The notes beneath the pieces are model-generated. The model was not told the DNA's origin. It saw nothing but the letters and a program-made list of their open reading frames with translations, and made no database searches. The translations under genes were made by a program, and so were the position numbers. A stretch of 11,600 nucleotides of DNA from a virus: UHGV virus genome UHGV-0197807; one strand, written 5' to 3'. This document shows positions 1,689-11,600 of the stretch, piece by piece; within the stretch, counting starts at the first letter, position 1, and the number at the start of each line of letters is the position of its first letter.

Positions 1689-2753
1689 ATGTCAGGTGAA
1701 ACTCAAAATATTTCAGCAATGGCAGAAAAAATATCTTCAGACCTATTCAAATGGTTTAAGTGGGAACTCGTTGGTCCAACCAATGAAAACTTTCCATGCA
1801 TGAAAAAAGATCAACATAAAACACTAGCCGGAACACATCCAACTGATGTTGTATTTTCTTATAAAGATCCCTATTTGAATAGAACCATTTTTTTAAATAC
1901 TGATTTAAAAAGCTATATTAAAGGCTCAATTACAGCAACTAAAATGCGCAATGCTTTAGTATCGCTGGCTAATTCTATTGACTGTGCTCAAGGTTGTAAA
2001 GAATGGAAGGAGCGTTATTCTTATAAAAGTGGTGCGTCAGAAGTCAGAGGCATGCTCTTTGTATACAACCATGACGGAGACTTTGACCAATCTTTTTATG
2101 ATGTATTCTATCAGTCTCACAATACTGAAACTGATAAGAAGAAAAGAGGTATCAATCTTGACAATATACCGGTAAGGGTCGGTCAAAAAATACACATTAT
2201 TGAACCAAGAACTATAAACTACCTGCAGTCAATAATCTGCGATTTATCACAACTAAGCCACAAAAGAGAGTTTCCACTCGGTAAAAAATATCAATTCTTT
2301 TACCCAGACCTTTCACTACATAAAGTAAGCGGTTCGCCCGAAGAACTTCCAGCAACTGTAGAATTATTGACAGGCCCATTCCTTATTATAAAACATAATG
2401 ACGTCAGACATTGCAATGAAGAAACATCACAATGGGAAACCACATTTAAACATGGTTACATTATTTATTACAATGGCGAAGGAAAAAACGAGCTAGAGTT
2501 TATTTACATTCTGGACACACTATCTAAATATCAATTACTGGATGGCAATGAAAATATAAGAATTAGAATAGTTAACCCTAACATACATAAAGATGTTCGC
2601 AGTATTTTTATGCGTGCGAAGGATAGTTATTGTCAAGAATGGGGGTTCGATGAACATAAAAAAACGATAATAGATGCTATTGATTTTCAACAGGTAGAAT
2701 TTACAAAGCCTCGTTTTAGTTCGGTAGAGATTGGTTGGGAGCGACAGGCATGA
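1689..2753 (+). CDS. Hypothetical protein, cargo gene 1 (354 aa), no recognisable family; candidate defense component
   Basis: Long ORF in an AT-rich island with Lys/Asn/Ile-rich composition. Its stop (TGA 2751-2753) overlaps the ATG of the next gene (ATGA). No Walker A or other confident catalytic motif; a weak D...D-x-K spacing (D53/D60, D72-L-K74) is noted in the findings. Confidence 0.75.
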   Translation: MSGETQNISAMAEKISSDLFKWFKWELVGPTNENFPCMKKDQHKTLAGTHPTDVVFSYKDPYLNRTIFLNTDLKSYIKGSITATKMRNALVSLANSIDCAQGCKEWKERYSYKSGASEVRGMLFVYNHDGDFDQSFYDVFYQSHNTETDKKKRGINLDNIPVRVGQKIHIIEPRTINYLQSIICDLSQLSHKREFPLGKKYQFFYPDLSLHKVSGSPEELPATVELLTGPFLIIKHNDVRHCNEETSQWETTFKHGYIIYYNGEGKNELEFIYILDTLSKYQLLDGNENIRIRIVNPNIHKDVRSIFMRAKDSYCQEWGFDEHKKTIIDAIDFQQVEFTKPRFSSVEIGWERQA

Positions 2754-3862
2754 AAATTGGATTATATAGTGTAAATGATAAGGCAATGTTTGACGCATTG
2801 AATCAAACTAAAGTCACTCATGAAGATATGAAAAGTCTCTTTTTTAAAAGAGGAATGATTATATCCAAAGAGACTAAACGAAAAACATTGGCTTTGGATT
2901 TTTCCAGATACTATCATGGCTATTCTGATTTTGAATTTCTTTCAAACATACTCGGTTCTGTTGGGCGGAGAGAAAAAGTATCAATTAACATTATTAATAC
3001 AAATATAGATAAAAATAGTATGGAAAATACTATTAAATCTATTTGTGAAGATCTTCAAAAAGAAGGCGATATAACTAATATAAATTACACCGAGAATGGT
3101 TTTGAAGTATCAATAAAATATGTGAAACTAGATTTCAAAATGAGCGAGTTTCGCCAATCCTCATCACGTGAAGCCAAAATACAAGTTGAAATGAATGAAA
3201 GCGGTGAATTTATCACCCGTTTCCCTCAAAATGCTAAAGCAAGGGAATTCAACGAGCGCCTCGTGGAGAAGATCAAAGAAGACAACAATGAGGATCCAGC
3301 CAGTCTTGATGAGATTTCGCTCGAAACTGTTAAATCACCAGCGGAAAGAAGCAAATTTTTTGAGCAACTAATCTCAAGCATACCTAACTACAAATGCATT
3401 GACGTATCGGATGTATACGTTACGCATCCAATTCTTGAGTCAAATAAGTCTAACGAAAATGAAGATGATTCTGATGATGACGATACAATTATTGACACAG
3501 GATATCATATCTCCAAAGCTTCACTAAAAGGGCGCAGCGTTCTTGACTCTCTCGAGTTTAAGGAGTTGTTAGGAAAAGGATTTTATATTACCAAAATCAT
3601 TTGGAGTTCTGTTGTTGACACTTATAAAGACTCGGACAAATATGAATTCGAGGCTCAATTTGTCGACCCAGATAATTGCAAGTTATTCTCGTATATCGTT
3701 CGCGGTGTTTATAAGTACAAAAATATAAACGAATATGCAAATCGTCAAAATGTAGATAAAGAGAAGGAAAAACTGCTATTATTAGCACTTGAAAAAACCG
3801 CTCGCGAAATTTCAAACAGTATTATCGCCTCCAACACAATTGAGGTTGTTACTGATAAATAA
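2750..3862 (+). CDS. Hypothetical protein, cargo gene 2 (370 aa from ATG 2750), contains a polyacidic tract; candidate defense component
   Basis: The ORF track begins at TTG 2735, but ATG 2750 is preceded by GGGAG (2737-2741) and overlaps the upstream stop, so I place the start there. Contains ENEDDSDDDD (DNA ~3455-3484). No nucleotide-binding or nuclease motif recognised. Confidence 0.75.
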   Translation: MKIGLYSVNDKAMFDALNQTKVTHEDMKSLFFKRGMIISKETKRKTLALDFSRYYHGYSDFEFLSNILGSVGRREKVSINIINTNIDKNSMENTIKSICEDLQKEGDITNINYTENGFEVSIKYVKLDFKMSEFRQSSSREAKIQVEMNESGEFITRFPQNAKAREFNERLVEKIKEDNNEDPASLDEISLETVKSPAERSKFFEQLISSIPNYKCIDVSDVYVTHPILESNKSNENEDDSDDDDTIIDTGYHISKASLKGRSVLDSLEFKELLGKGFYITKIIWSSVVDTYKDSDKYEFEAQFVDPDNCKLFSYIVRGVYKYKNINEYANRQNVDKEKEKLLLLALEKTAREISNSIIASNTIEVVTDK

Positions 3863-3873
3863 AAGGAGTTGTT

Positions 3874-4545
3874 ATGAAAACAAAATGGTTTACTGCCAAC
3901 TTCCCTGCTGGACTTGATAGTTTATATCAGTCTATCATTAACACTCCTTTTGATAGTGATAAAGGCTGGGGATTTAGTATCAACTCATATGAAGAAAATG
4001 CAATATCATCTCGATACATCGAGAAAGTAGAGGTCAACGAGATAATCGTTGATCCATATGGAAACGAGACTCAATATACACAGCTAAAATATATTCAATT
4101 TAACTTTTGGCTTTACACAACAAAAGGTAAAAACTTCATCTTAATCATTGAGTCGCCTCCCAGAAGCATTAAGAACTTCATATCAAACATAATTAAATCA
4201 ACACATTCTGATTTTAATGTGTCAAATCTCAACATCAAAATTGAGGACTTCATTTATTTCCTGACCCCGCACTTTGAAAAAATACAAGTGCACAAGGCAA
4301 AATTAAAAGACTTAACGTTTAGCAAACACACATCCGGCATACTGGAACTTGAGTCATCAAGTGACGCACTTATGGAAATAAGAAACATTTTCAAAAATGC
4401 AAATTTTACAATTGATAAAGTTAAACTTAATGTTAAGGACGTTACCGGTTATGAGTCATTAGAAATTAACACAAATGGGTCCATTTCACTTTCAGAGCAA
4501 ATTTTTGACAAGGTGTATCGAACCATAGAAAGGTTTGCCCTTTAA
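3874..4545 (+). CDS. Hypothetical protein, cargo gene 3 (223 aa), no recognisable family; candidate defense component
   Basis: ATG 3874 is preceded by a strong SD AAGGAG (3862-3867), 11 nt after the cargo gene 2 stop. AT-rich composition as for genes 1-2; followed by a hairpin terminator. Confidence 0.75.
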   Translation: MKTKWFTANFPAGLDSLYQSIINTPFDSDKGWGFSINSYEENAISSRYIEKVEVNEIIVDPYGNETQYTQLKYIQFNFWLYTTKGKNFILIIESPPRSIKNFISNIIKSTHSDFNVSNLNIKIEDFIYFLTPHFEKIQVHKAKLKDLTFSKHTSGILELESSSDALMEIRNIFKNANFTIDKVKLNVKDVTGYESLEINTNGSISLSEQIFDKVYRTIERFAL

Positions 4546-4710: not shown

Positions 4711-6990
4711 TCAATCTATTACAGTTGTGAACCCTGGCCATCCATCAGCGACCGGATAAGCGAATTTTTTCCCGTCATAATTTACGGTCGCGCCACGCGC
4801 CAGCGCCTCAAGCTCCCATCGCTGCGGCCTGATACCGTTCTGAGCAAGGTCAACGCGGATACGGGGAATTTGCATTCGTTCCGACCGGGTCAGTCTGGCC
4901 GATGGCGCTATTTCATGCGGTTTTAACGGGCTTCCGTTTCTTTGCTGGCGGTTTGGTCTTCTCAGTCCGTGTTTTAATGCACCCCTGAGCGCCCTCACGA
5001 CCTCCGGGTCACTCCATTCGATGACACCGTCATCAACCAGATTAAGCACTGCTGCGGCGTGCTCAGAAGGTGTGGGAGCCGGTAACGAAGTATCACCACC
5101 GGTGAGCGTTCCACAGTTATTGACAGGACTCCGAGGCGCGGCGATGCCGCTTTTTAAAGTCAAAGGCTCCACGACCGGAACTTTCGGCACAATGCGCCAG
5201 TCCGTCGTTCTGGTGATATGAATATGACGCGCGCCGAGATGCGGCGCGTAAATGCCGACCACTCTCTCGACTTCTTCCTCGTACTCGTTAACTTCATCCG
5301 ACGGACTACGGGCGACCCTGACAGTCTGACAATCGCGCGGGACATTTGCCCCACCCTGCGCGCTGATATACAGCGCAAAATCGCCACTGTCTGCGGCAGC
5401 GCGTGCAGCCTCGACACGTTCGTCAAACTCATCAGCAATGCTGACGCCGCGAGGTAATTTGCGTAGTTCACGGTAAGCCCCCATTGTCGGCAGGCCAACA
5501 GTTTTAAATTGCGGAATGCGCCACGTTGACGCCCATGCGGTAACAGCCGCGGCAGTGTCTTTCAGCGGCCTGCCGGTATCGTTATCGAGCTGACCATCCA
5601 GTGCATAGCCGTCGATGTTTTTTGAAATGTATTTCGCGATATATCCCGCAGCACCGCCCCGGTTAAGGTGTTTTGCCTGAAAACGGTTTCGCGCAGCTCC
5701 TCTTTCGTCGCTATCCTCTTTGAGCGCGTAGCGACGCATGATTTCAATAATCTGGTTACGCTGGCGTGGATTACAAAAAAGCATCATATGCCAGTGCGGC
5801 GTTCCGTCGTGGTGTGGCTCGACGACTCGCAAACCGTAGACCTGTAAATCATTATCCTTGAATGCCGTGCGCATCAGGCTCCAGATACGGCAGAGATAAC
5901 GCTGCGCATCCTTTGGATTAAATGCCTCATCGTTCCAGCCGTGATTAAGCTGGACGGTTTTACTTTCTCCTTTTCCGACCTGACGTGTCGGGTGATACTT
6001 TGACGGCGTGGTCAGCGTGATAAACATCCCCACATCACCCTCTGCGGCGGCGTAACGCTCAATACCGGCGATTGTGTTCATCAGCTCCATCCGGCGAATT
6101 TCAGGATTAGAAATACTGCCCATCACCTTACTGATAAGGTCGATGCGCTCGCCGGTTTCCCTGTTTTCGAGGTCACACGATTTAAGAAATTCCAGATTTG
6201 CCTGGCGGCGTGCACGCACATCACGAATGGCATGTTTACTGGCATAAGGAGAACGGTCTTTATTGACCTCCCCGACAGCAATCAGTAACGCCTCATGCCA
6301 GCGCATACGCTGGCCTTTGAGCTGATGAGTCCACCACTCATCGTTAAACAGACGGGCAATGGCAGAATATGCCTGCCTCGTGGTCATCTGTCCTTTACGG
6401 TATTTTTTCCAGTAAAGCGGGGAAATATTGAAAGCACGTGCAGCGCCAGCAACATGACCATAGAGGTGAGCCTGCACCTCATCCGTAAACAGCGATTCTT
6501 TTTCGCCATGTGCATCCACCCATGCATCGCTGAGTTCCTCATACATCATGAAAAGCTGCGATGAGATACGGGCGGCAAACTTTTTCAGCTCCTTGTCATT
6601 CATTCCCGGCAGGCGCGCATAGTGGTCACGCTCTGCCAGAAACAGCAACGACGCGTCGGTGTTCATTTCATGGCGCTGATTCACACGCTCAATGCGCGGC
6701 CATAAACGACGCTGAAAAGTGGATGTGAGGAAATAAAACCCGTGCACCGGGCTTTTATTGTGCAGGATGTAGTCATAGCGTGAAGTAAACAGCGAGCGCA
6801 AAAAGTAAGGCAGGCGGTTAATCGTGGATAAAACACCTTGCACCTGACGCATCTCGTCACGTGTAAGGGGTCTTTCGCGCCCGACAGCCTCGCGTGGCGC
6901 GTTCCATGCATAAGCACCGGTAAACGCCTTACCGGTGCCTGCGGCAAATGCTGACGGAGGGACAAAACGCCCGGAGGCTTTAACGTCCAT
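4711..6990 (-). CDS. A: Replication initiation protein gpA (rolling-circle HUH endonuclease)
   Basis: The ORF track gives 4711-7032 with a TTG start; ATG 6990 (MDVKASGRF...) has a GAGG SD upstream and gives 759 aa (P2 gpA is ~761 aa). HUH-type motif PHWHMMLF (H-W-H at 5788-5796) and tyrosine pair GYIAKYISK (Tyr codons at 5641-5643 and 5629-5631). Counted from ATG 6990 these are Tyr450 and Tyr454, the numbering I recall for the P2 A active-site tyrosines. Confidence 0.9.
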   Translation of the reverse strand: MDVKASGRFVPPSAFAAGTGKAFTGAYAWNAPREAVGRERPLTRDEMRQVQGVLSTINRLPYFLRSLFTSRYDYILHNKSPVHGFYFLTSTFQRRLWPRIERVNQRHEMNTDASLLFLAERDHYARLPGMNDKELKKFAARISSQLFMMYEELSDAWVDAHGEKESLFTDEVQAHLYGHVAGAARAFNISPLYWKKYRKGQMTTRQAYSAIARLFNDEWWTHQLKGQRMRWHEALLIAVGEVNKDRSPYASKHAIRDVRARRQANLEFLKSCDLENRETGERIDLISKVMGSISNPEIRRMELMNTIAGIERYAAAEGDVGMFITLTTPSKYHPTRQVGKGESKTVQLNHGWNDEAFNPKDAQRYLCRIWSLMRTAFKDNDLQVYGLRVVEPHHDGTPHWHMMLFCNPRQRNQIIEIMRRYALKEDSDERGAARNRFQAKHLNRGGAAGYIAKYISKNIDGYALDGQLDNDTGRPLKDTAAAVTAWASTWRIPQFKTVGLPTMGAYRELRKLPRGVSIADEFDERVEAARAAADSGDFALYISAQGGANVPRDCQTVRVARSPSDEVNEYEEEVERVVGIYAPHLGARHIHITRTTDWRIVPKVPVVEPLTLKSGIAAPRSPVNNCGTLTGGDTSLPAPTPSEHAAAVLNLVDDGVIEWSDPEVVRALRGALKHGLRRPNRQQRNGSPLKPHEIAPSARLTRSERMQIPRIRVDLAQNGIRPQRWELEALARGATVNYDGKKFAYPVADGWPGFTTVID

Positions 6991-7255
6991 ATGAGCCAAA
7001 AGCCTCTGAACAACGCCTGCTGAGTTGCTCAACCTGCGCGTTTAAATCGGCAAAAGATTTTGCGCTTCCGGTCAGAATATCGTGATGCATCAGGCCGGAA
7101 ACGAGCTGGCTTAATTTCGGGTAATAACCAACCACCGCCAGCCATTCCTGACCGGCGTTTTTAACGCTTTCCGCTCTCTTTTTCTCGTGGAGAATAAACT
7201 GAAAGCTGTCACTGGTAACAACATAACGTTCGCCAATTTCGATACGAATACTCAT
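6980..7255 (-). CDS. Small hypothetical protein (91 aa), P2 orf83-position
   Basis: ATG 7255 overlaps the stop of the upstream ORF (ATGA); its 3' end overlaps the start of A by ~11 nt. Last of four small translationally coupled ORFs between B and A, the same arrangement as P2 orf80-83. Function unknown. Confidence 0.6.
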   Translation of the reverse strand: MSIRIEIGERYVVTSDSFQFILHEKKRAESVKNAGQEWLAVVGYYPKLSQLVSGLMHHDILTGSAKSFADLNAQVEQLSRRCSEAFGSYGR

Positions 7256-7476
7256 GCCGTTCTCCGGTAATGTTTGTTTTTTGCTTCAAAGACTGACTGA
7301 CAGGAAACACAACGCGTGGCTGACGGATAAGCCGCACGACGGGCAGCAGGTATTGGCGCGTCACACTCTTCGCAAACCAGCGCAGAAGCACCGCAATGTT
7401 TTACCCTTGCCGCGTTAATCTGGCGCTCCAGTAATTCAGCCTGTTGTTCCTGAATGAAATCTACGTTGTCCGGCAT
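7252..7476 (-). CDS. TraR/DksA-family C4 zinc-finger protein (74 aa), P2 orf82-position
   Basis: Four-Cys motif C-x2-C-x17-C-x2-C (VCEECDAPIPAARRAAYPSATRCVSCQ), characteristic of DksA/TraR-type zinc fingers. ATG 7476 overlaps the upstream stop (TAATG); SD AAGGA upstream. Confidence 0.7.
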   Translation of the reverse strand: MPDNVDFIQEQQAELLERQINAARVKHCGASALVCEECDAPIPAARRAAYPSATRCVSCQSVFEAKNKHYRRTA

Positions 7477-7778
7477 TACCAGTTCCTTTTGTCGTTCAGT
7501 TTCTTAAATTCATCAGCGCAATAGCTGGCGAGTTCTGTCGTTAATTTTGTCAGTTCATCCACTGAGGAAATTTGCTTGTGAAATACAGCGCGTTTAACAA
7601 GTAAATTGACCACATCAGACAGGAGGTTTAATTCGCTCTGATAAATCGCGATAACAGATTCAGTTATGTCGCGCTTTTCTTTATCAAGACCAAGTTGAAT
7701 AAGAGACAAATCGCCATTTTCCATAACGGCGATTTTTAAGGCGTTATTCAGTAATACAACTGAACGAGAACAGGACAT
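7476..7778 (-). CDS. Small hypothetical protein (100 aa), P2 orf81-position
   Basis: The ORF track start is TTG 7781; the adjacent ATG 7778 is preceded by GGAGG and overlaps the upstream stop (TGATG). Confidence 0.6.
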   Translation of the reverse strand: MSCSRSVVLLNNALKIAVMENGDLSLIQLGLDKEKRDITESVIAIYQSELNLLSDVVNLLVKRAVFHKQISSVDELTKLTTELASYCADEFKKLNDKRNW

Positions 7779-8002
7779 CAAAGCACCTCCCCGCGAGACA
7801 ATCCGATATTGTGAAATTTTTCCGACTCCTGACTGAGCAGCTCGACTATCTCCACGCGGGATAACTCCGCCTTTGTGATGTGGCGAATCATGGCGTCAAG
7901 ATGAGAAGAAAAGCGCGTCGCAGCGTCGGCCTGTGCTTCGGTTCTGGCCTGTTGCAGCAGTAATGCGTATATACCGCACTGATTTTCAGAAACTGTATGC
8001 AT
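7778..8002 (-). CDS. Small hypothetical protein (74 aa), P2 orf80-position
   Basis: The ORF track start is 8035; internal ATG 8002 (MHTVSENQ...) has GGAG 8 nt upstream, so I place the start there. Confidence 0.6.
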
Positions 8003-8065
8003 GACTTTCTCCAGGCAAAAAGAAGCCCCGCACAATTAAGTGCGTTAAAAACTCTGGTTAATTAC

Positions 8066-8566
8066 TTAATGCAGATATTGCTCTGGTTTTACCGACGTCA
8101 GAATTGTCGGTGCATACTCAAACAGACTGAATAATTCACGTAATGCACGGAATAAAGCATCACGCCAGTAACATGATTCTTCATTAATTCGCCAGTATGG
8201 CTGGTTAAATTCTTTTTCTGTCAGTCGTGCGTGCATAAATAAAGTGCGACGCTGACTGACTGTTAAAAAACTAATATATGCATACTCACTTGCGCCAACC
8301 TGACGGCGTTTTGAGAATGCCCCACGCAATTCATCAATTGCACATACCAGTCGTTCACGTTCGACGTCGTTCATTTCTTCAAAACGCATCGTTGCGTGAC
8401 GTTGTTTTAACTGCGCATGAAAGCAAACTGTTAGCCGTTCGCGCTCCATCATCTGATTATAATAATCACATGTATCCTGCCAGCGAGGGACGGCAAGATG
8501 CTTACCAATTATCCGGCGCATAGCTGCTGGCTGTTTTTCGACGAGATTGAGCGTCATCACTGTCAT
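8066..8566 (-). CDS. B: Replication protein gpB (helicase-loader-like early protein)
   Basis: Start at ATG 8566 (MTVMTLNLVEKQ...) has GGAGGA 7 nt upstream and gives 166 aa, the size of P2 gpB; the ORF track's 8572 start lies too close to the SD. Position between cox/orf78 and the orf80-83 string matches P2. Confidence 0.85.
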   Translation of the reverse strand: MTVMTLNLVEKQPAAMRRIIGKHLAVPRWQDTCDYYNQMMERERLTVCFHAQLKQRHATMRFEEMNDVERERLVCAIDELRGAFSKRRQVGASEYAYISFLTVSQRRTLFMHARLTEKEFNQPYWRINEESCYWRDALFRALRELFSLFEYAPTILTSVKPEQYLH

Positions 8567-8733
8567 TTCCATATCCTCCGGCTTTTCAGAAAGGTCAGAG
8601 CCTTTTTTAACGGACTCTGTTTTTTGGTGCGGATAATGATTCCCTTGCGTCCCTTCCCGTGGGTGATGGTAAAGTCAATCGCCCTGGGGCTTTCGTTACG
8701 CAATAACTGAGCAATACAACGAGGCTCGTTCAT
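8563..8733 (-). CDS. Small basic hypothetical protein (56 aa), P2 orf78-position
   Basis: The ORF track extends to 8853, but that upstream part overlaps cox out of frame. ATG 8733 (MNEPRCIAQ...) lies just after the cox stop, is preceded by AAGGTGGAAAGG, and the stop overlaps the B start. Start choice is my inference. Confidence 0.45.
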   Translation of the reverse strand: MNEPRCIAQLLRNESPRAIDFTITHGKGRKGIIIRTKKQSPLKKALTFLKSRRIWK

Positions 8734-8743
8734 CCTTTCCACC

Positions 8744-9100
8744 TTAAGCCGCACGGCCATGTCTTGATTTGCTGTAACTAATGCGATTTTTCCAGTCATG
8801 CCATTCTGTCGGAGCTTCATCAACCAGTTGGGCTGCGTACTTGTCCCACTCACGGCGATTAATCCATAATTCAGCTTTCCCTCTTGGTTTTAATGGGTCT
8901 GTCATGTAGAAGGCTGGCAGCTTTCCTGCTTTAGCCATTTCAGCCACCGCGCGTGGTGTCTTACCGATGTAAAGAGCAAAACCTTCTTTCGACAGCAAAT
9001 CAGATGGGCGCTCTGAAATCTGAATGCTTTTACGTTTGGCTTCATTTTCGAAACTTGCCTCATCGCTAGTTGGACAAGAAATTTCTACATTTGTCGTCAC
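8744..9100 (-). CDS. cox: Cox-like excisionase / lytic-switch regulator
   Basis: C-terminal half (FALYIGKTPRAVAEMAKAGKLPAFYMTDP...) resembles my recollection of P2 Cox (FAKLIGKSTGAVRRMIDKGKLPVIDMTDP...). Divergent from C, as in P2. Start uncertain: ATG 9115 has no SD, whereas GTG 9100 follows GGAGGA at 7 nt; either gives a protein longer (118-123 aa) than P2 Cox (91 aa). Confidence 0.7.
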   Translation of the reverse strand: MTTNVEISCPTSDEASFENEAKRKSIQISERPSDLLSKEGFALYIGKTPRAVAEMAKAGKLPAFYMTDPLKPRGKAELWINRREWDKYAAQLVDEAPTEWHDWKNRISYSKSRHGRAA

Positions 9101-9115
9101 TTTGCTATCCTCCAT

Positions 9116-9208
9116 AAGATTTGCGATTCACCAACTGGAGCCATCTAGAGCCTTTTTGAGTGAATCACAAATTGCCAAGTAGAAATATAATTGGAGATTA
9201 GCAAAATT
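9116..9208. promoter_or_regulatory. Divergent C/cox immunity-switch region (putative Pc/Pe promoters and operators)
   Basis: ~90-bp region between divergent cox and C, the position of the P2 Pe/Pc switch. Perfect TATAAT at 9186-9191 facing C; inverted repeat gattcac (9126-9132) / gtgaatc (9163-9169). No operator assignment possible from sequence alone. Confidence 0.4.
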
Positions 9209-9508
9209 ATGTCAAGTGAACAAAGTGAGAAACTAAAGCTCATCCGTGAATCCGAACGCCTTAAAACTAAGGAACTTGCTGAATTAATTGGAATTAATTA
9301 CTACACATATCATGGATATGAATCAGGAAAATCAAAAATGCCTATGGAAGCAGGTATGAAGCTGTTTAAGCATCCACGCTTTCGCAAGTATCGTGACTGG
9401 TTCATGTTTGATGAAACAGATCCAGCAGCTGGACAAATAGCCCCGGCTCTCGCACACATTGGGCAAGACTCAACAACCTTGCACCACTCAGACCAGAAGA
9501 CTGGCTGA
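9209..9508 (+). CDS. C: Immunity repressor C
   Basis: From ATG 9209 the protein is 99 aa, the size of P2 C. C-terminal region ...QIAPALAHIGQDSTT..HSDQKTG matches my recollection of P2 C (...QIAPALAHFGQNETT..HSGQKTG). The ORF track's TTG 9191 start is less likely. Confidence 0.85.
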   Translation: MSSEQSEKLKLIRESERLKTKELAELIGINYYTYHGYESGKSKMPMEAGMKLFKHPRFRKYRDWFMFDETDPAAGQIAPALAHIGQDSTTLHHSDQKTG

Positions 9509-9601
9509 CGATTTATTCAGCATATGTGTGTAGTAAATGTACGAAAGAAAATTGCATTAATTTTCAAGTAGTAGAAGTAAACAGCGTCATCGGAGGGCTT
9601 T

Positions 9602-10597
9602 ATGTCTATTAAAAAGCTCGATGATGGTCGTTATGAAGTGGACGTCAGACCGCAGGGTGCAGATGGAAAACGTATCAGGCGGAAATTTAAAACTAAAGGT
9701 GAAGCTCAGGCATTCGAACGTCATGTACTGGTTAACTACCACAACAAAGAGTGGTTGGAGAAACCAGCCGACCGCCGAACTCTTACAGAGTTGTTAGGTA
9801 GATGGTGGATATATCACGGAAAATCACATGAGCGTGGAGATATTGAACGGGGGCGTTTAACGACAATAATCGCCAAATTTGCAGAAATGGGAGTGTCCAG
9901 AGCTGACCAGCTAACAAAGAAAACGATAACTGATTATCGCGTTGTAATGATGAACGATGGTCTAAAACCAGCCAGCGTAAATCGACATCTGGCAATAATG
10001 AGCGGGATGTTCACCAAGTTAATTGACGCCGGTGAATACCACTCCCACAACCCGTTCCGTGATATTAAACGGTTACGTGAAGCTGTTACGGAAATGGCTT
10101 TTTTGTCCAGTGAAGAGATTACGCGGCTGTTATCCATGCTTGATGGTGATGAATTAAATGCAACTCTGGTCTGCCTTTCTACTGGTGGACGCTGGAGTGA
10201 AGTGTCTAATTTAAAAGCTGAACACATCATTAACCAGATGGTTACGTTTATGAAAACTAAAAACGGAAAACGCAGGACAATTCCCGTTTCGCAGGACCTG
10301 ATTAAACGGATCAAGACCAAAAATTCAGGCAGGCTTTTTAATGCCAGTTACTACAAAGTGCGTAACGCTCTCAGGGAAGTAAAACCCGATTTACCTGACG
10401 GACAAGCAGTACATGTTTTGAGGCATACATTTGCCACACATTTTATAATGAATGGAGGTAACATAATCACATTGCAGCGCATCCTGGGTCATTCTAACAT
10501 TCAGCAAACTATGACCTACGCACACTTTGCACCGGATTTCTTACAAGATGCTGTGACTCTTAACCCGGTGTCAGGAATGTCCATAATGCGTCCATAA
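9602..10597 (+). CDS. int: Tyrosine integrase (P2-type site-specific recombinase)
   Basis: 331-aa ORF with SD GGAGGG 6 nt upstream. C-terminal catalytic signature HVLRHTFATHF...LGHSNIQQTMTYAHF (H-x-x-R and the nucleophilic Tyr). Lies downstream of C on the same strand, adjacent to the chromosomal junction, as in P2. Confidence 0.95.
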   Translation: MSIKKLDDGRYEVDVRPQGADGKRIRRKFKTKGEAQAFERHVLVNYHNKEWLEKPADRRTLTELLGRWWIYHGKSHERGDIERGRLTTIIAKFAEMGVSRADQLTKKTITDYRVVMMNDGLKPASVNRHLAIMSGMFTKLIDAGEYHSHNPFRDIKRLREAVTEMAFLSSEEITRLLSMLDGDELNATLVCLSTGGRWSEVSNLKAEHIINQMVTFMKTKNGKRRTIPVSQDLIKRIKTKNSGRLFNASYYKVRNALREVKPDLPDGQAVHVLRHTFATHFIMNGGNIITLQRILGHSNIQQTMTYAHFAPDFLQDAVTLNPVSGMSIMRP

Positions 10598-10700
10598 ACC
10601 AGAGTTAACTAGAGCCAATTGAAGCGATATGAGTAATTTAACTAATTGTAATACAACAGAAAATACCGCTACGGCGGGGGCTACCAAGTCAGTTATTGGT
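10598..10700. other. Prophage-chromosome junction; attachment core not resolvable from this window
   Basis: The int stop (10597) lies 31 bp before the first in-frame ATG of the pflA ORF, and the pflA 5' end differs from the canonical one (see findings), so the junction must be here. The core cannot be delimited without the other prophage end or an empty-site sequence. Confidence 0.3.
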
Positions 10701-11426
10701 CGCATTCACTCCTTTGAATCCTGTGGAACCGTAGACGGCCCAGGTATTCGCTTTATCACCTTTTTCCAGGGCTGCCTGATGCGCTGCCTGTATTGTCATA
10801 ACCGCGACACCTGGGACACGCATGGCGGTAAAGAAGTTACCGTTGAAGATTTGATGAAGGAAGTGGTGACCTATCGCCACTTTATGAACGCTTCCGGCGG
10901 CGGCGTTACCGCATCCGGCGGTGAAGCAATCCTGCAAGCTGAGTTTGTTCGTGACTGGTTCCGCGCCTGCAAAAAAGAAGGCATTCATACCTGTCTGGAC
11001 ACCAACGGTTTTGTTCGTCGTTACGATCCGGTGATTGATGAACTGCTGGAAGTAACCGACCTGGTAATGCTCGATCTCAAACAGATGAACGACGAGATCC
11101 ACCAAAATCTGGTTGGAGTTTCCAACCACCGCACGCTGGAGTTCGCTAAATATCTGGCGAACAAAAATGTGAAGGTGTGGATCCGCTACGTTGTTGTCCC
11201 AGGCTGGTCTGACGATGACGATTCAGCGCATCGCCTCGGTGAATTTACCCGTGATATGGGCAACGTTGAGAAAATCGAGCTTCTCCCCTACCACGAGCTG
11301 GGCAAACACAAATGGGTGGCAATGGGTGAAGAGTACAAACTCGACGGTGTTAAACCACCGAAGAAAGAGACCATGGAACGCGTGAAAGGCATTCTTGAGC
11401 AGTACGGTCATAAGGTAATGTTCTAA
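10629..11426 (+). CDS. pflA: Pyruvate formate-lyase activating enzyme (radical SAM) with a non-canonical 19-codon 5' extension
   Basis: From residue 21 onward ([22 protein letters not shown]...CLMRCLYC...HKVMF) the protein matches E. coli PflA as I recall it (246 aa, starting MSVIGR). The canonical Met1 position here is AAG (Lys, 10686-10688), and the ORF extends in frame to ATG 10629. The native-length equivalent would be 10686-11426. Confidence 0.88.
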
Positions 11427-11437
11427 TTTCCCCGTAA

Positions 11438-11470
11438 AGCGGCAACTTTATTGAGTTGCCGCTTTTTTAT
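11438..11470. terminator. Rho-independent terminator downstream of pflA, likely bidirectional
   Basis: Stem agcggcaact (11438-11447) / agttgccgct (11454-11463) with loop ttattg, followed by a T6 run (11463-11468) and preceded by A-rich sequence on the other strand. Confidence 0.6.
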
Positions 11471-11507
11471 TCCGCGCTTCATTCTGCTACAGCGTTTTTA
11501 ACACATC

Positions 11508-11600
11508 TTATAGTGCATCTACCATATCCCGTACCTGAGATAATAACGACTGATAATAGCTCGCGTGAAGTTCTTCCCCATCGAATACCACTGTATTACA
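11508..11600 (-). CDS. 3' end of a convergent host gene (30 codons plus stop); identity not established, possibly the gene flanking pflA (ycaK-like)
   Basis: The only - strand frame open from the window edge ends at TAA 11508-11510 (...VVFDGEELHASYYQSLLSQVRDMVDAL*), just beyond the pflA terminator. Too short for confident identification. Confidence 0.3.
   Translation of the reverse strand, partial: CNTVVFDGEELHASYYQSLLSQVRDMVDAL

Follow-up and report, generated by a model that had tools for sequence, protein, structure and literature searches.

The 11,600-nucleotide stretch analyzed here (UHGV virus genome UHGV-0197807, referred to at its full length as the window) contains the junction between a prophage and the bacterial gene pflA. 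We have considerable confidence in a reading in which a P2-like attR lies within codons 1 to 5 of pflA, a phage-encoded leader supplies the start codon, and the resulting fusion is translated and active in Escherichia coli lysogens, where it would be transcribed mainly by read-through from the lysogenic C-int operon. In this model, the integrase recombines a 13-bp core located in the first five codons of the gene. The native pflA promoter, ribosome-binding site, and ATG are found ∼31 kb away at attL, where they precede only an 8-codon stub. In their place, the phage arm brings an in-frame ATG 57 nt upstream of the old start, which yields a 265-amino-acid (aa) PflA with a 20-residue N-terminal leader and an unaltered catalytic body. 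The sequences display this arrangement directly; translation, activity, and read-through transcription are inferred. The features on which this reading is built are collected in Table 1.

Table 1. Features of the window around the int-pflA junction (positions are those of the window)
Feature	Position	Strand	Evidence
Candidate Pc-type promoter, ATCACA-16-TATAAT	9164..9191	+	Consensus scan, 10/12 matches
Candidate Pe-type promoter, facing Pc	9215-9187	-	Consensus scan; the 9164-9215 pair also occurs in free phage L003
Immunity repressor (C-like, helix-turn-helix)	9209..9508	+	PGAP CDS of E308 mapped to the window
P2-family tyrosine integrase, 331 aa	9602..10597	+	Pfam Int_N (E 3e-22) and Phage_integrase (E 1e-18)
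Two direct repeats GTCCATA, 11-bp spacing, overlapping the int stop	10579..10596	+	Motif search
Untranslated phage-arm spacer	10598..10628	+	Weak purine tract (GAAG) located 4 nt upstream of the ATG; substitutions 9/7/9
Phage-encoded leader, ATG plus 18 codons	10629..10685	+	Present in free-phage attP; same-length homologues in related junctions
Fused leader-pflA ORF, 265 aa	10629..11426	+	ORF list, Pfam, identity to 3C8F; PGAP WP_000067979.1
Codon 20 AAG (Lys), phage derived, at the position of the native pflA ATG	10686-10688	+	AAG in attP versus ATG in attB
Common core GTCAGTTATTGGT, pflA codons 1 to 5	10688-10700	none	Four-way comparison of att sequences
Native pflA terminator	11436..11465	+	First terminator-like site downstream of Pc

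A four-way comparison of attachment sequences established the anatomy of the junction. The core GTCAGTTATTGGT is the same in attB, attP, attL, and attR; because it is perfectly shared by all four, strand exchange must fall within it. An imperfect extended core spans approximately 10684 to 10706, with BLAST end points at 10685 for empty sites and at 10706 for free phages. The empty site of strain g83 (attB) reads ...CACCGCA ATG TCAGTTATTGGT CGCATTCAC..., and the free phage (attP) reads ...GCTACC AAG TCAGTTATTGGT GACATTTTTTGA. At the other prophage end in strain E308 (attL, ...CGCAATG-TCAGTTATTGGT-GACATT...), the left side is bacterial and the right side is phage; in the window (attR, the int-side junction), the left side is phage and the right side is bacterial. 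The two ends are reciprocal recombinants of attP and attB over the common core, with the crossover within the first codons of pflA. The E308 lysogen matches the window at 100% over 10450 to 10950, and its attL adjoins pflB and ogr. Its two core copies are 30,969 bp apart and enclose a complete P2-type prophage that runs from ogr beside pflB to int beside pflA. The four-way comparison identifies the junction in the window as the int-side one, and the DNA to the left of the core is phage DNA. Among the matches listed, phage-free E. coli genomes align only from position 10685 rightwards, and free phage genomes (e.g., Peduovirus P24A7b) contain the whole upstream sequence, the AAG codon, and the first 13 bases common with pflA.

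These comparisons also bear on the opposite explanation, namely, that the AAG codon and the sequence upstream of it are native to E. coli and that the att core lies elsewhere. A prophage-free reference carrying the same codon and upstream sequence would be expected in that case, whereas g83 has ATG at this position and unrelated DNA upstream. With the upstream DNA also found in free phages and the reciprocal junction present in E308, we discard this explanation altogether. The initial annotation had proposed that the attachment core lies inside the 5' end of pflA and that the phage arm gives the protein a substitute N terminus. The four-way comparison agrees on both points, and alignment of the window to a prophage-free region and to the other prophage end recovered the duplicated core; this reading of the junction is supported. 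We also considered whether AAG is forced by half-site symmetry of the core (ACCAA ... TTGGT in the E. coli phage) and rejected the idea as a general rule, as other groups carry GTTAAG, GCAAAG, GTAAAG, or ATG at this position. At the attL of E308 (L001:8012-8140), the displaced native promoter and ribosome-binding site precede an 8-codon ORF, MSVIGDIF, and its stop. This ORF is followed by a GC-rich hairpin with T-runs on both sides, which probably terminates ogr as well as any transcription entering the prophage from pflB.

On the int side, only 31 nt separate the int stop (TAA, 10595-10597) from the leader ATG. The initial annotation had noted this distance and the extension of the reading frame up to that ATG, and both are confirmed from the letters. 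The canonical E. coli PflA start (Met1-Ser2-Val3) is absent at the junction, and the start is shifted to 10629. As had also been described, Met1 is replaced by lysine, which the ATG of the g83 empty site confirms; the AAG codon is followed by TCA GTT ATT GGT (SVIG). Leader codons 2 to 19 include no ATG, GTG, or TTG, again in line with the earlier description. An in-frame TGA lies three codons upstream of the ATG (10620-10622), and the next in-frame Met downstream falls within the CxxxCxxC motif. Thus, 10629 is the only conventional start (ATG, GTG, or TTG) that keeps the radical S-adenosylmethionine (radical-SAM) cysteines.

The body of the enzyme is untouched by the junction. Residues 21 to 265 of the fusion are identical to the crystallized E. 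coli pyruvate formate-lyase (PFL)-activating enzyme (PDB entries 3C8F and 3CB8), PflA residues 2 to 246 are unchanged, and the product matches Pfam Radical_SAM and Fer4_12. The 19-codon extension precedes the CxxxCxxC motif, as first reported, and the motif is intact in the 265-aa fusion (C49/C53/C56). The exact 265-aa protein occurs on at least 1,000 contigs. A single-sequence AlphaFold model was poor (mean pLDDT, 45.6) and therefore says nothing on the leader. PflA proteins of other bacteria carry unrelated N-terminal extensions, such as MSTTQKTIPTTEISTTSPPATFGRIHSF and MSVINRIPAVEVSATAAETSVTADASGVIGRIHSV (fragments P0015, P0028, and P0027), which suggests that the PflA N terminus may tolerate additions generally. 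Taken by itself, the leader ORF is not beyond chance: among dinucleotide-preserving shuffles of the 88-nt arm, 12.5% yield an in-frame open ATG and 25% yield an in-frame open ATG, GTG, or TTG. Its significance comes from comparative data.

The prophage to which the arm belongs is closely related to known phages. Its integrase is 99.1 to 99.7% identical at the protein level to the integrases of 19 phage records, which match with at least 80% query cover and 97.6 to 99.7% nucleotide identity; 14 complete genomes read through attP to 10706. Beyond these, the next-closest integrase is that of P88 (60.7%), and other P2-family integrases of the phage collection, such as those of W-phi and of records labeled Peduovirus P2, are at closest ∼55% identical. 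The attP of P88 does not contain a pflA-like core, which indicates that the pflA-targeting clade is narrow. Two phage records with a pflA annotation (H51 and H53) were examined as a second attP type and rejected as mis-delimited records of ordinary focA-pflB-pflA chromosome. Pfam GPA and Cox matches within the window, together with ogr and tail genes at the far end of the E308 prophage, give a P2-type layout of A, B, cox, C, int, and att. The Pfam HTH_19 match of the repressor is weak (24.5 bits versus a curated cutoff of 30.2 bits). The Pc and Pe labels are assigned by position relative to cox and C, and both remain candidate promoters; Pc is where the C-int-pflA transcript is proposed to begin.

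Both arms of the attachment site carry paired repeats. The GTCCATA pair of the left arm has a counterpart in the right arm of attP and attL, where GTCCACA and GACCACA are likewise 11 bp apart, and a similar motif is present beside the int stop of P88. We consider the left-arm pair to be candidate arm-type Int binding sites. No convincing integration host factor (IHF) consensus was seen on inspection of the attP arm by eye, and no Rfam match was obtained in the window.

Other parts of the window prophage are mosaic relative to the E308 prophage (L001). Long shared 25-mer runs are confined to approximately 7360 to 11600, with a few short stretches elsewhere, and the A gene and cargo region differ between the two. 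Between the portal gene (228-1262) and gene A (4711-7032), the window carries three plus-strand cargo genes (1689-4545) encoding proteins of 354, 375, and 223 aa. These match the PADLOC candidate-defense models Hp1, Hp2, and Hp3 (E values of 2e-63, 4e-37, and 6e-8), have no Pfam match, and retrieve only PHROG families of "unknown function." E308 carries an AAA ATPase and a hypothetical protein at the same spot, which marks it as a variable hotspot.

The junction is common in E. coli. A 501-nt junction query matched all 5,426 complete E. coli genomes; counting only matches over at least 80% of the query length, the junction is present in 405 of them (7.5%, or approximately 1 in 13). The phage-only part of the query (10250-10684) was retrieved from exactly 405 genomes, in one copy each, and all listed matches adjoin pflA. 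An arm variant with only 86% identity is present in 11 genomes; its leader is MSNLNHCNTTENPAASGATK, and the ORF is intact at 265 codons. Of the 405 int-pflA junctions, three come from plasmid-labeled records, including H145 (NZ_CP148584.1, 73.8 kb); these are probably chromosome fragments that were mis-assigned in assembly.

Related junctions extend well beyond E. coli. An integrase scan with one genome per species retrieved relatives of 76 to 99% identity, a range that covers the four scored genera, in Escherichia albertii, three Scandinavium species, Pseudescherichia vulneris, and Rahnella ecdela. All of these are directly upstream of pflA, each with a homologous in-frame 19-codon leader, and a Citrobacter portucalensis contig displays the same cox-C-int-leader-pflA order, also with a homologous 19-codon leader. 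Including pattern scans of viral and metagenome contigs, we collected 23 distinct leader sequences, each of which has the ATG and is free of in-frame stops, compared with 2 to 5 stops in each of the other two frames. At the old start position, most have AAG; one Salmonella lineage has AAT, and the Rahnella group has ATG. In the latter (L010, L014, L015, L018, and L020), the codon 20 ATG and the in-frame leader provide two possible starts, and some copies have the codon 20 ATG inside a 12-bp palindrome, GGACATATGTCC. Two further searches added little: a 60-aa leader profile retrieved only fragments of 43 to 105 aa, with a few extra leaders and no prevalence data, and an integrase-profile scan of viral contigs was uninformative, being saturated by near-identical E. 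coli prophages that are mostly cut at the int stop.

Among the loci with enough downstream sequence, 38 of 41 keep exactly 265 codons. The leader-pflA ORF is broken in three metagenome contigs, two of them with indels at ∼2 to 3× coverage (L146 and L151) and the third (L120) with a 1-nt deletion in an A-run followed by a 2-nt deletion. Sequencing error is the likely cause, and these may also be real pseudogenes.

Substitutions were counted by parsimony on a neighbor-joining tree of 28 distinct 281-nt sequences. Across leader codons 2 to 19, there were 17, 24, and 36 changes at codon positions 1, 2, and 3, respectively (P = 0.01 for the excess at position 3). Because the leader set was partly found with a search pattern that fixes codons 1 to 8, codons 11 to 19, which lie outside the pattern, were also counted separately, with 12, 14, and 28 changes (P = 0.004). 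The untranslated spacer gave 9, 7, and 9 changes (P = 0.46), and pflA proper gave 5, 3, and 43 (P = 8e-14). Synonymous changes in the leader were more frequent than expected (27 synonymous versus 50 nonsynonymous; 35% versus 23% expected; P = 0.009), and the chance of no stop arising given the 77 leader changes is ∼0.06. Judged from these alignments, the coding signature of the leader is modest but real (omega, ∼0.5), as for a loosely constrained tag. Cys7 (10647-10649) is kept in every leader variant, including those obtained independently of the pattern (Citrobacter, S42, and the divergent L171). Glu11 (10659-10661) is present in all MSNL-type leaders, and L171 has Asp there; the remaining residues vary freely.

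The same alignments can be read at the level of DNA. The leader might be conserved only through constraints on attP (Int arm sites, sites for bending proteins, and spacing), with translation being irrelevant. The whole arm aligns without gaps across groups, so the constant leader length may equally reflect attP spacing; conservation of the spacer equals or exceeds that of the leader (0.84 versus 1.35 changes per site), and paired arm repeats flank the core on either side. However, constraints of this kind predict neither the excess of third-position and synonymous changes nor an arm that is stop-free in one frame only, and the leader ORF remains open and fused to pflA in the Salmonella and L171 relics described below, where recombination is no longer possible. 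We therefore regard DNA-level constraint alone as very improbable. More improbable still, in our estimation, is that the leader belongs to a small phage gene, 27 codons long in the free phage, with the pflA fusion a by-product. Such a gene would account for the stop just past the core that closes the ORF in attP and for the conservation of Cys7 and Glu11 in MSNL-type leaders, with Cys7 kept and Asp at position 11 in L171. Against it, the 27-codon ORF has no known family or function, its peptide varies strongly in the second half, and the relics retain the leader only as a fusion. A leader that is translated as the N terminus of PflA remains our preferred reading of these data.

The strongest evidence that the fusion is tolerated comes from the long use of the leader as the N terminus of Salmonella PflA. 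In metagenome contigs L122, L136, and L153, only 1.6 kb separates pflB from the leader-pflA downstream of it. Going from pflB toward pflA, this interval comprises the terminator of pflB, a SopD-family gene in the reverse orientation, an int pseudogene, and lastly the arm with the leader. The SopD-family gene encodes a full-length effector (Pfam SopD, E = 1.9e-148) and corresponds to sopD2. The decayed int 3' end retains 68 to 70% nucleotide identity to window positions 10406 to 10700 (E values of 6e-37 and 2e-33), with protein matches to Int residues 197 to 320 in L122 and 261 to 320 in L153, and the same internal stop is present in two lineages. Both the native pflA promoter region and attL are missing from the interval, of which the two versions are co-linear and 81% identical. 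An exact look-up identified the product as the standard Salmonella PflA (≥1,000 contigs under "MULTISPECIES ... [Salmonella]" and 820 contigs under S. enterica), with the leader peptide SNLTDCITNESVAVTADK. Here too, the leader ATG is the only conventional start (ATG, GTG, or TTG) that retains the cluster cysteines. Codons 21 to 265 of Salmonella pflA show a dN/dS of 0.024 at a dS of 0.36, and codon 20 is AAG in one lineage versus AAT in the other. These comparisons indicate that a homologous 265-aa leader-PflA has been used in Salmonella since before the split of the two lineages, and the leader extension is very probably tolerated in PflA.

The location of a sopD2-type gene inside a 1.6-kb P2-like prophage relic suggests that the effector arrived as phage cargo. 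In L122 (∼6100-7060, minus strand; equivalent interval in L153), the gene is frameshifted in a poly-T run, which may reflect either faulty assembly or true pseudogene formation. We also observed a second, independent relic in L171:446-2261 (Logan SRR2175557). It retains the 3' end of pflB, an int fragment (E = 5e-9), and the divergent leader MNKITDCITTDPSDLVEDKK, along with a GT25 glycosyltransferase gene encoded on the opposite strand. The pflA gene fused to this leader is frameshifted in the assembly.

The conservation of these junctions can be set against the simplest alternative, in which pflA is simply knocked out by integration, the upstream ATG and its open frame are there by coincidence, and lysogens either do without PFL activation or use another activase. 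Some observations fit this view: the proportion of shuffled arms that offer an in-frame open ATG (12.5%), the weak Shine-Dalgarno match, and the description of prophage ECA29 as a pflA disruption in a review (PMC13492144). Nevertheless, coincidence would not be expected to retain the start and frame in all related junctions, which span at least six genera, to leave a coding signature in the leader, or to keep pflA intact in 38 of 41 loci. Nor does inactivation sit well with strong purifying selection on Salmonella pflA while it relies on the leader ATG, or with a junction carried by 7.5% of complete E. coli genomes. Inactivation is thus an unlikely explanation. In our reading of the comparative data, a functional fusion in E. 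coli lysogens is very likely.

How the fusion would be expressed can be considered from the arrangement of terminators. In the free phage, the first plus-strand terminator after int lies beyond the core (L003 2681-2704) and is transferred to attL on integration; the positional logic resembles that of lambda sib. No plus-strand terminator-like site was found in 8700 to 11435. With the post-int terminator carried to attL and none before 11436, the lysogenic C-int transcript should run into pflA. Translation of the leader would start from a weak Shine-Dalgarno sequence (anti-Shine-Dalgarno pairing of -2.1 kcal/mol versus -6.4 kcal/mol for the native pflA site) in a region that is almost unstructured (-2.7 versus -11.8 kcal/mol over 70 nt). 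PflA is an activase, of which small amounts suffice. Promoter-like matches near the junction and in the Salmonella relic were no commoner than in shuffled sequence; one such site in the int 3' end (10560-10587, 9/12) is not above chance and is poorly conserved. Because C, Pc, and an intact int are missing in Salmonella, another promoter must serve pflA there.

Prophages that integrate at the 3' ends of genes (tRNA genes, or e14 and phage 21 in icd) carry a duplicated gene end. As at pflA, the patch keeps the target whole; theirs is a homologous 3' copy, whereas that of pflA is a nonhomologous 5' extension. Phage P2 itself has an int-attP-ogr layout and uses imperfect cores at host sites. In common with P2, the pflA phage has the cox, C, int, att ... 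ogr order, with Int beside attP, direct repeats in both arms, and a short, partly mismatched core; it differs in the core sequence and in targeting a coding start. For E. coli W, K-12, B, and Crooks, the listed P2-like attachment sites are rybB, cyaR, and cpxP-fieF, and pflA is not among them.

Among described systems, the dusA-targeting islands and prophages share the most logic with the pflA phage. Their insertion point lies in the 5' end of dusA, which they exchange for sequence of their own while keeping the frame; putative promoters are present after insertion (Farrugia et al. 2015, PMC4482086). Both systems thus combine 5'-end integration with an element-supplied replacement that keeps the frame. 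The dusA replacement mimics a lost structural beta-strand; in contrast, the pflA phage leaves the enzyme body untouched and contributes a new start within an unrelated leader of 20 residues. The likeness proposed is one of logic and not of family membership. The dusA elements have another target and probably another integrase family, and the pflA-phage integrase is P2-like by context and closest relatives. ECA29 has both the phage family and the target gene in common with the pflA phage: the review PMC13492144 lists it as a P2-family prophage disrupting pflA in Pectobacterium atrosepticum (its ref. 82), and so reports a gene disruption. The same review describes replacement of the native torS promoter at the HK022 prophage junction, which parallels the promoter replacement at pflA; no change to the torS coding sequence is described there, whereas pflA loses both its promoter and its start codon. 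In the searchable, non-subscription literature, we found no paper that connects pflA to P2-like integration in E. coli or that connects sopD2 to pflA; the matches for sopD2 plus pflA were word-start artifacts of "pFLAG."

Taken together, the pflA junction is a new and well-populated example of a known phenomenon, gene-restoring integration with an element-borne patch. Its distinctive property, as judged from the att and leader comparisons, is that the patch is an unrelated N-terminal leader and not a copy of the lost end. The gene is very probably patched, not broken, and the long form of PflA is a phage-made fusion that is very probably functional. RefSeq carries the 265-aa PflA without comment. 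The finding is relevant to annotation, to metabolic modeling of anaerobic growth, and to work in which prophages within genes are treated as knockouts. It is also a clear natural case of a phage bringing its own start codon as the price of integrating into a useful gene. The same kind of event appears to have been fixed in Salmonella along with the virulence effector gene sopD2, and the fossil offers an origin for both the sopD2 locus and the odd N terminus of Salmonella PflA. More tentatively, and with some doubt on our part, the leader may have evolved in the phage as a "repair patch" for an essential anaerobic function, the Salmonella PflA N terminus and sopD2 locus together may be a prophage fossil left as a lasting mark by this single lineage of pflA-targeting P2-like phages, and pflA of E. 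coli lysogens may belong to a Pc-C-int-pflA immunity operon. If so, PFL activation would hinge on lysogeny and would be altered by induction.
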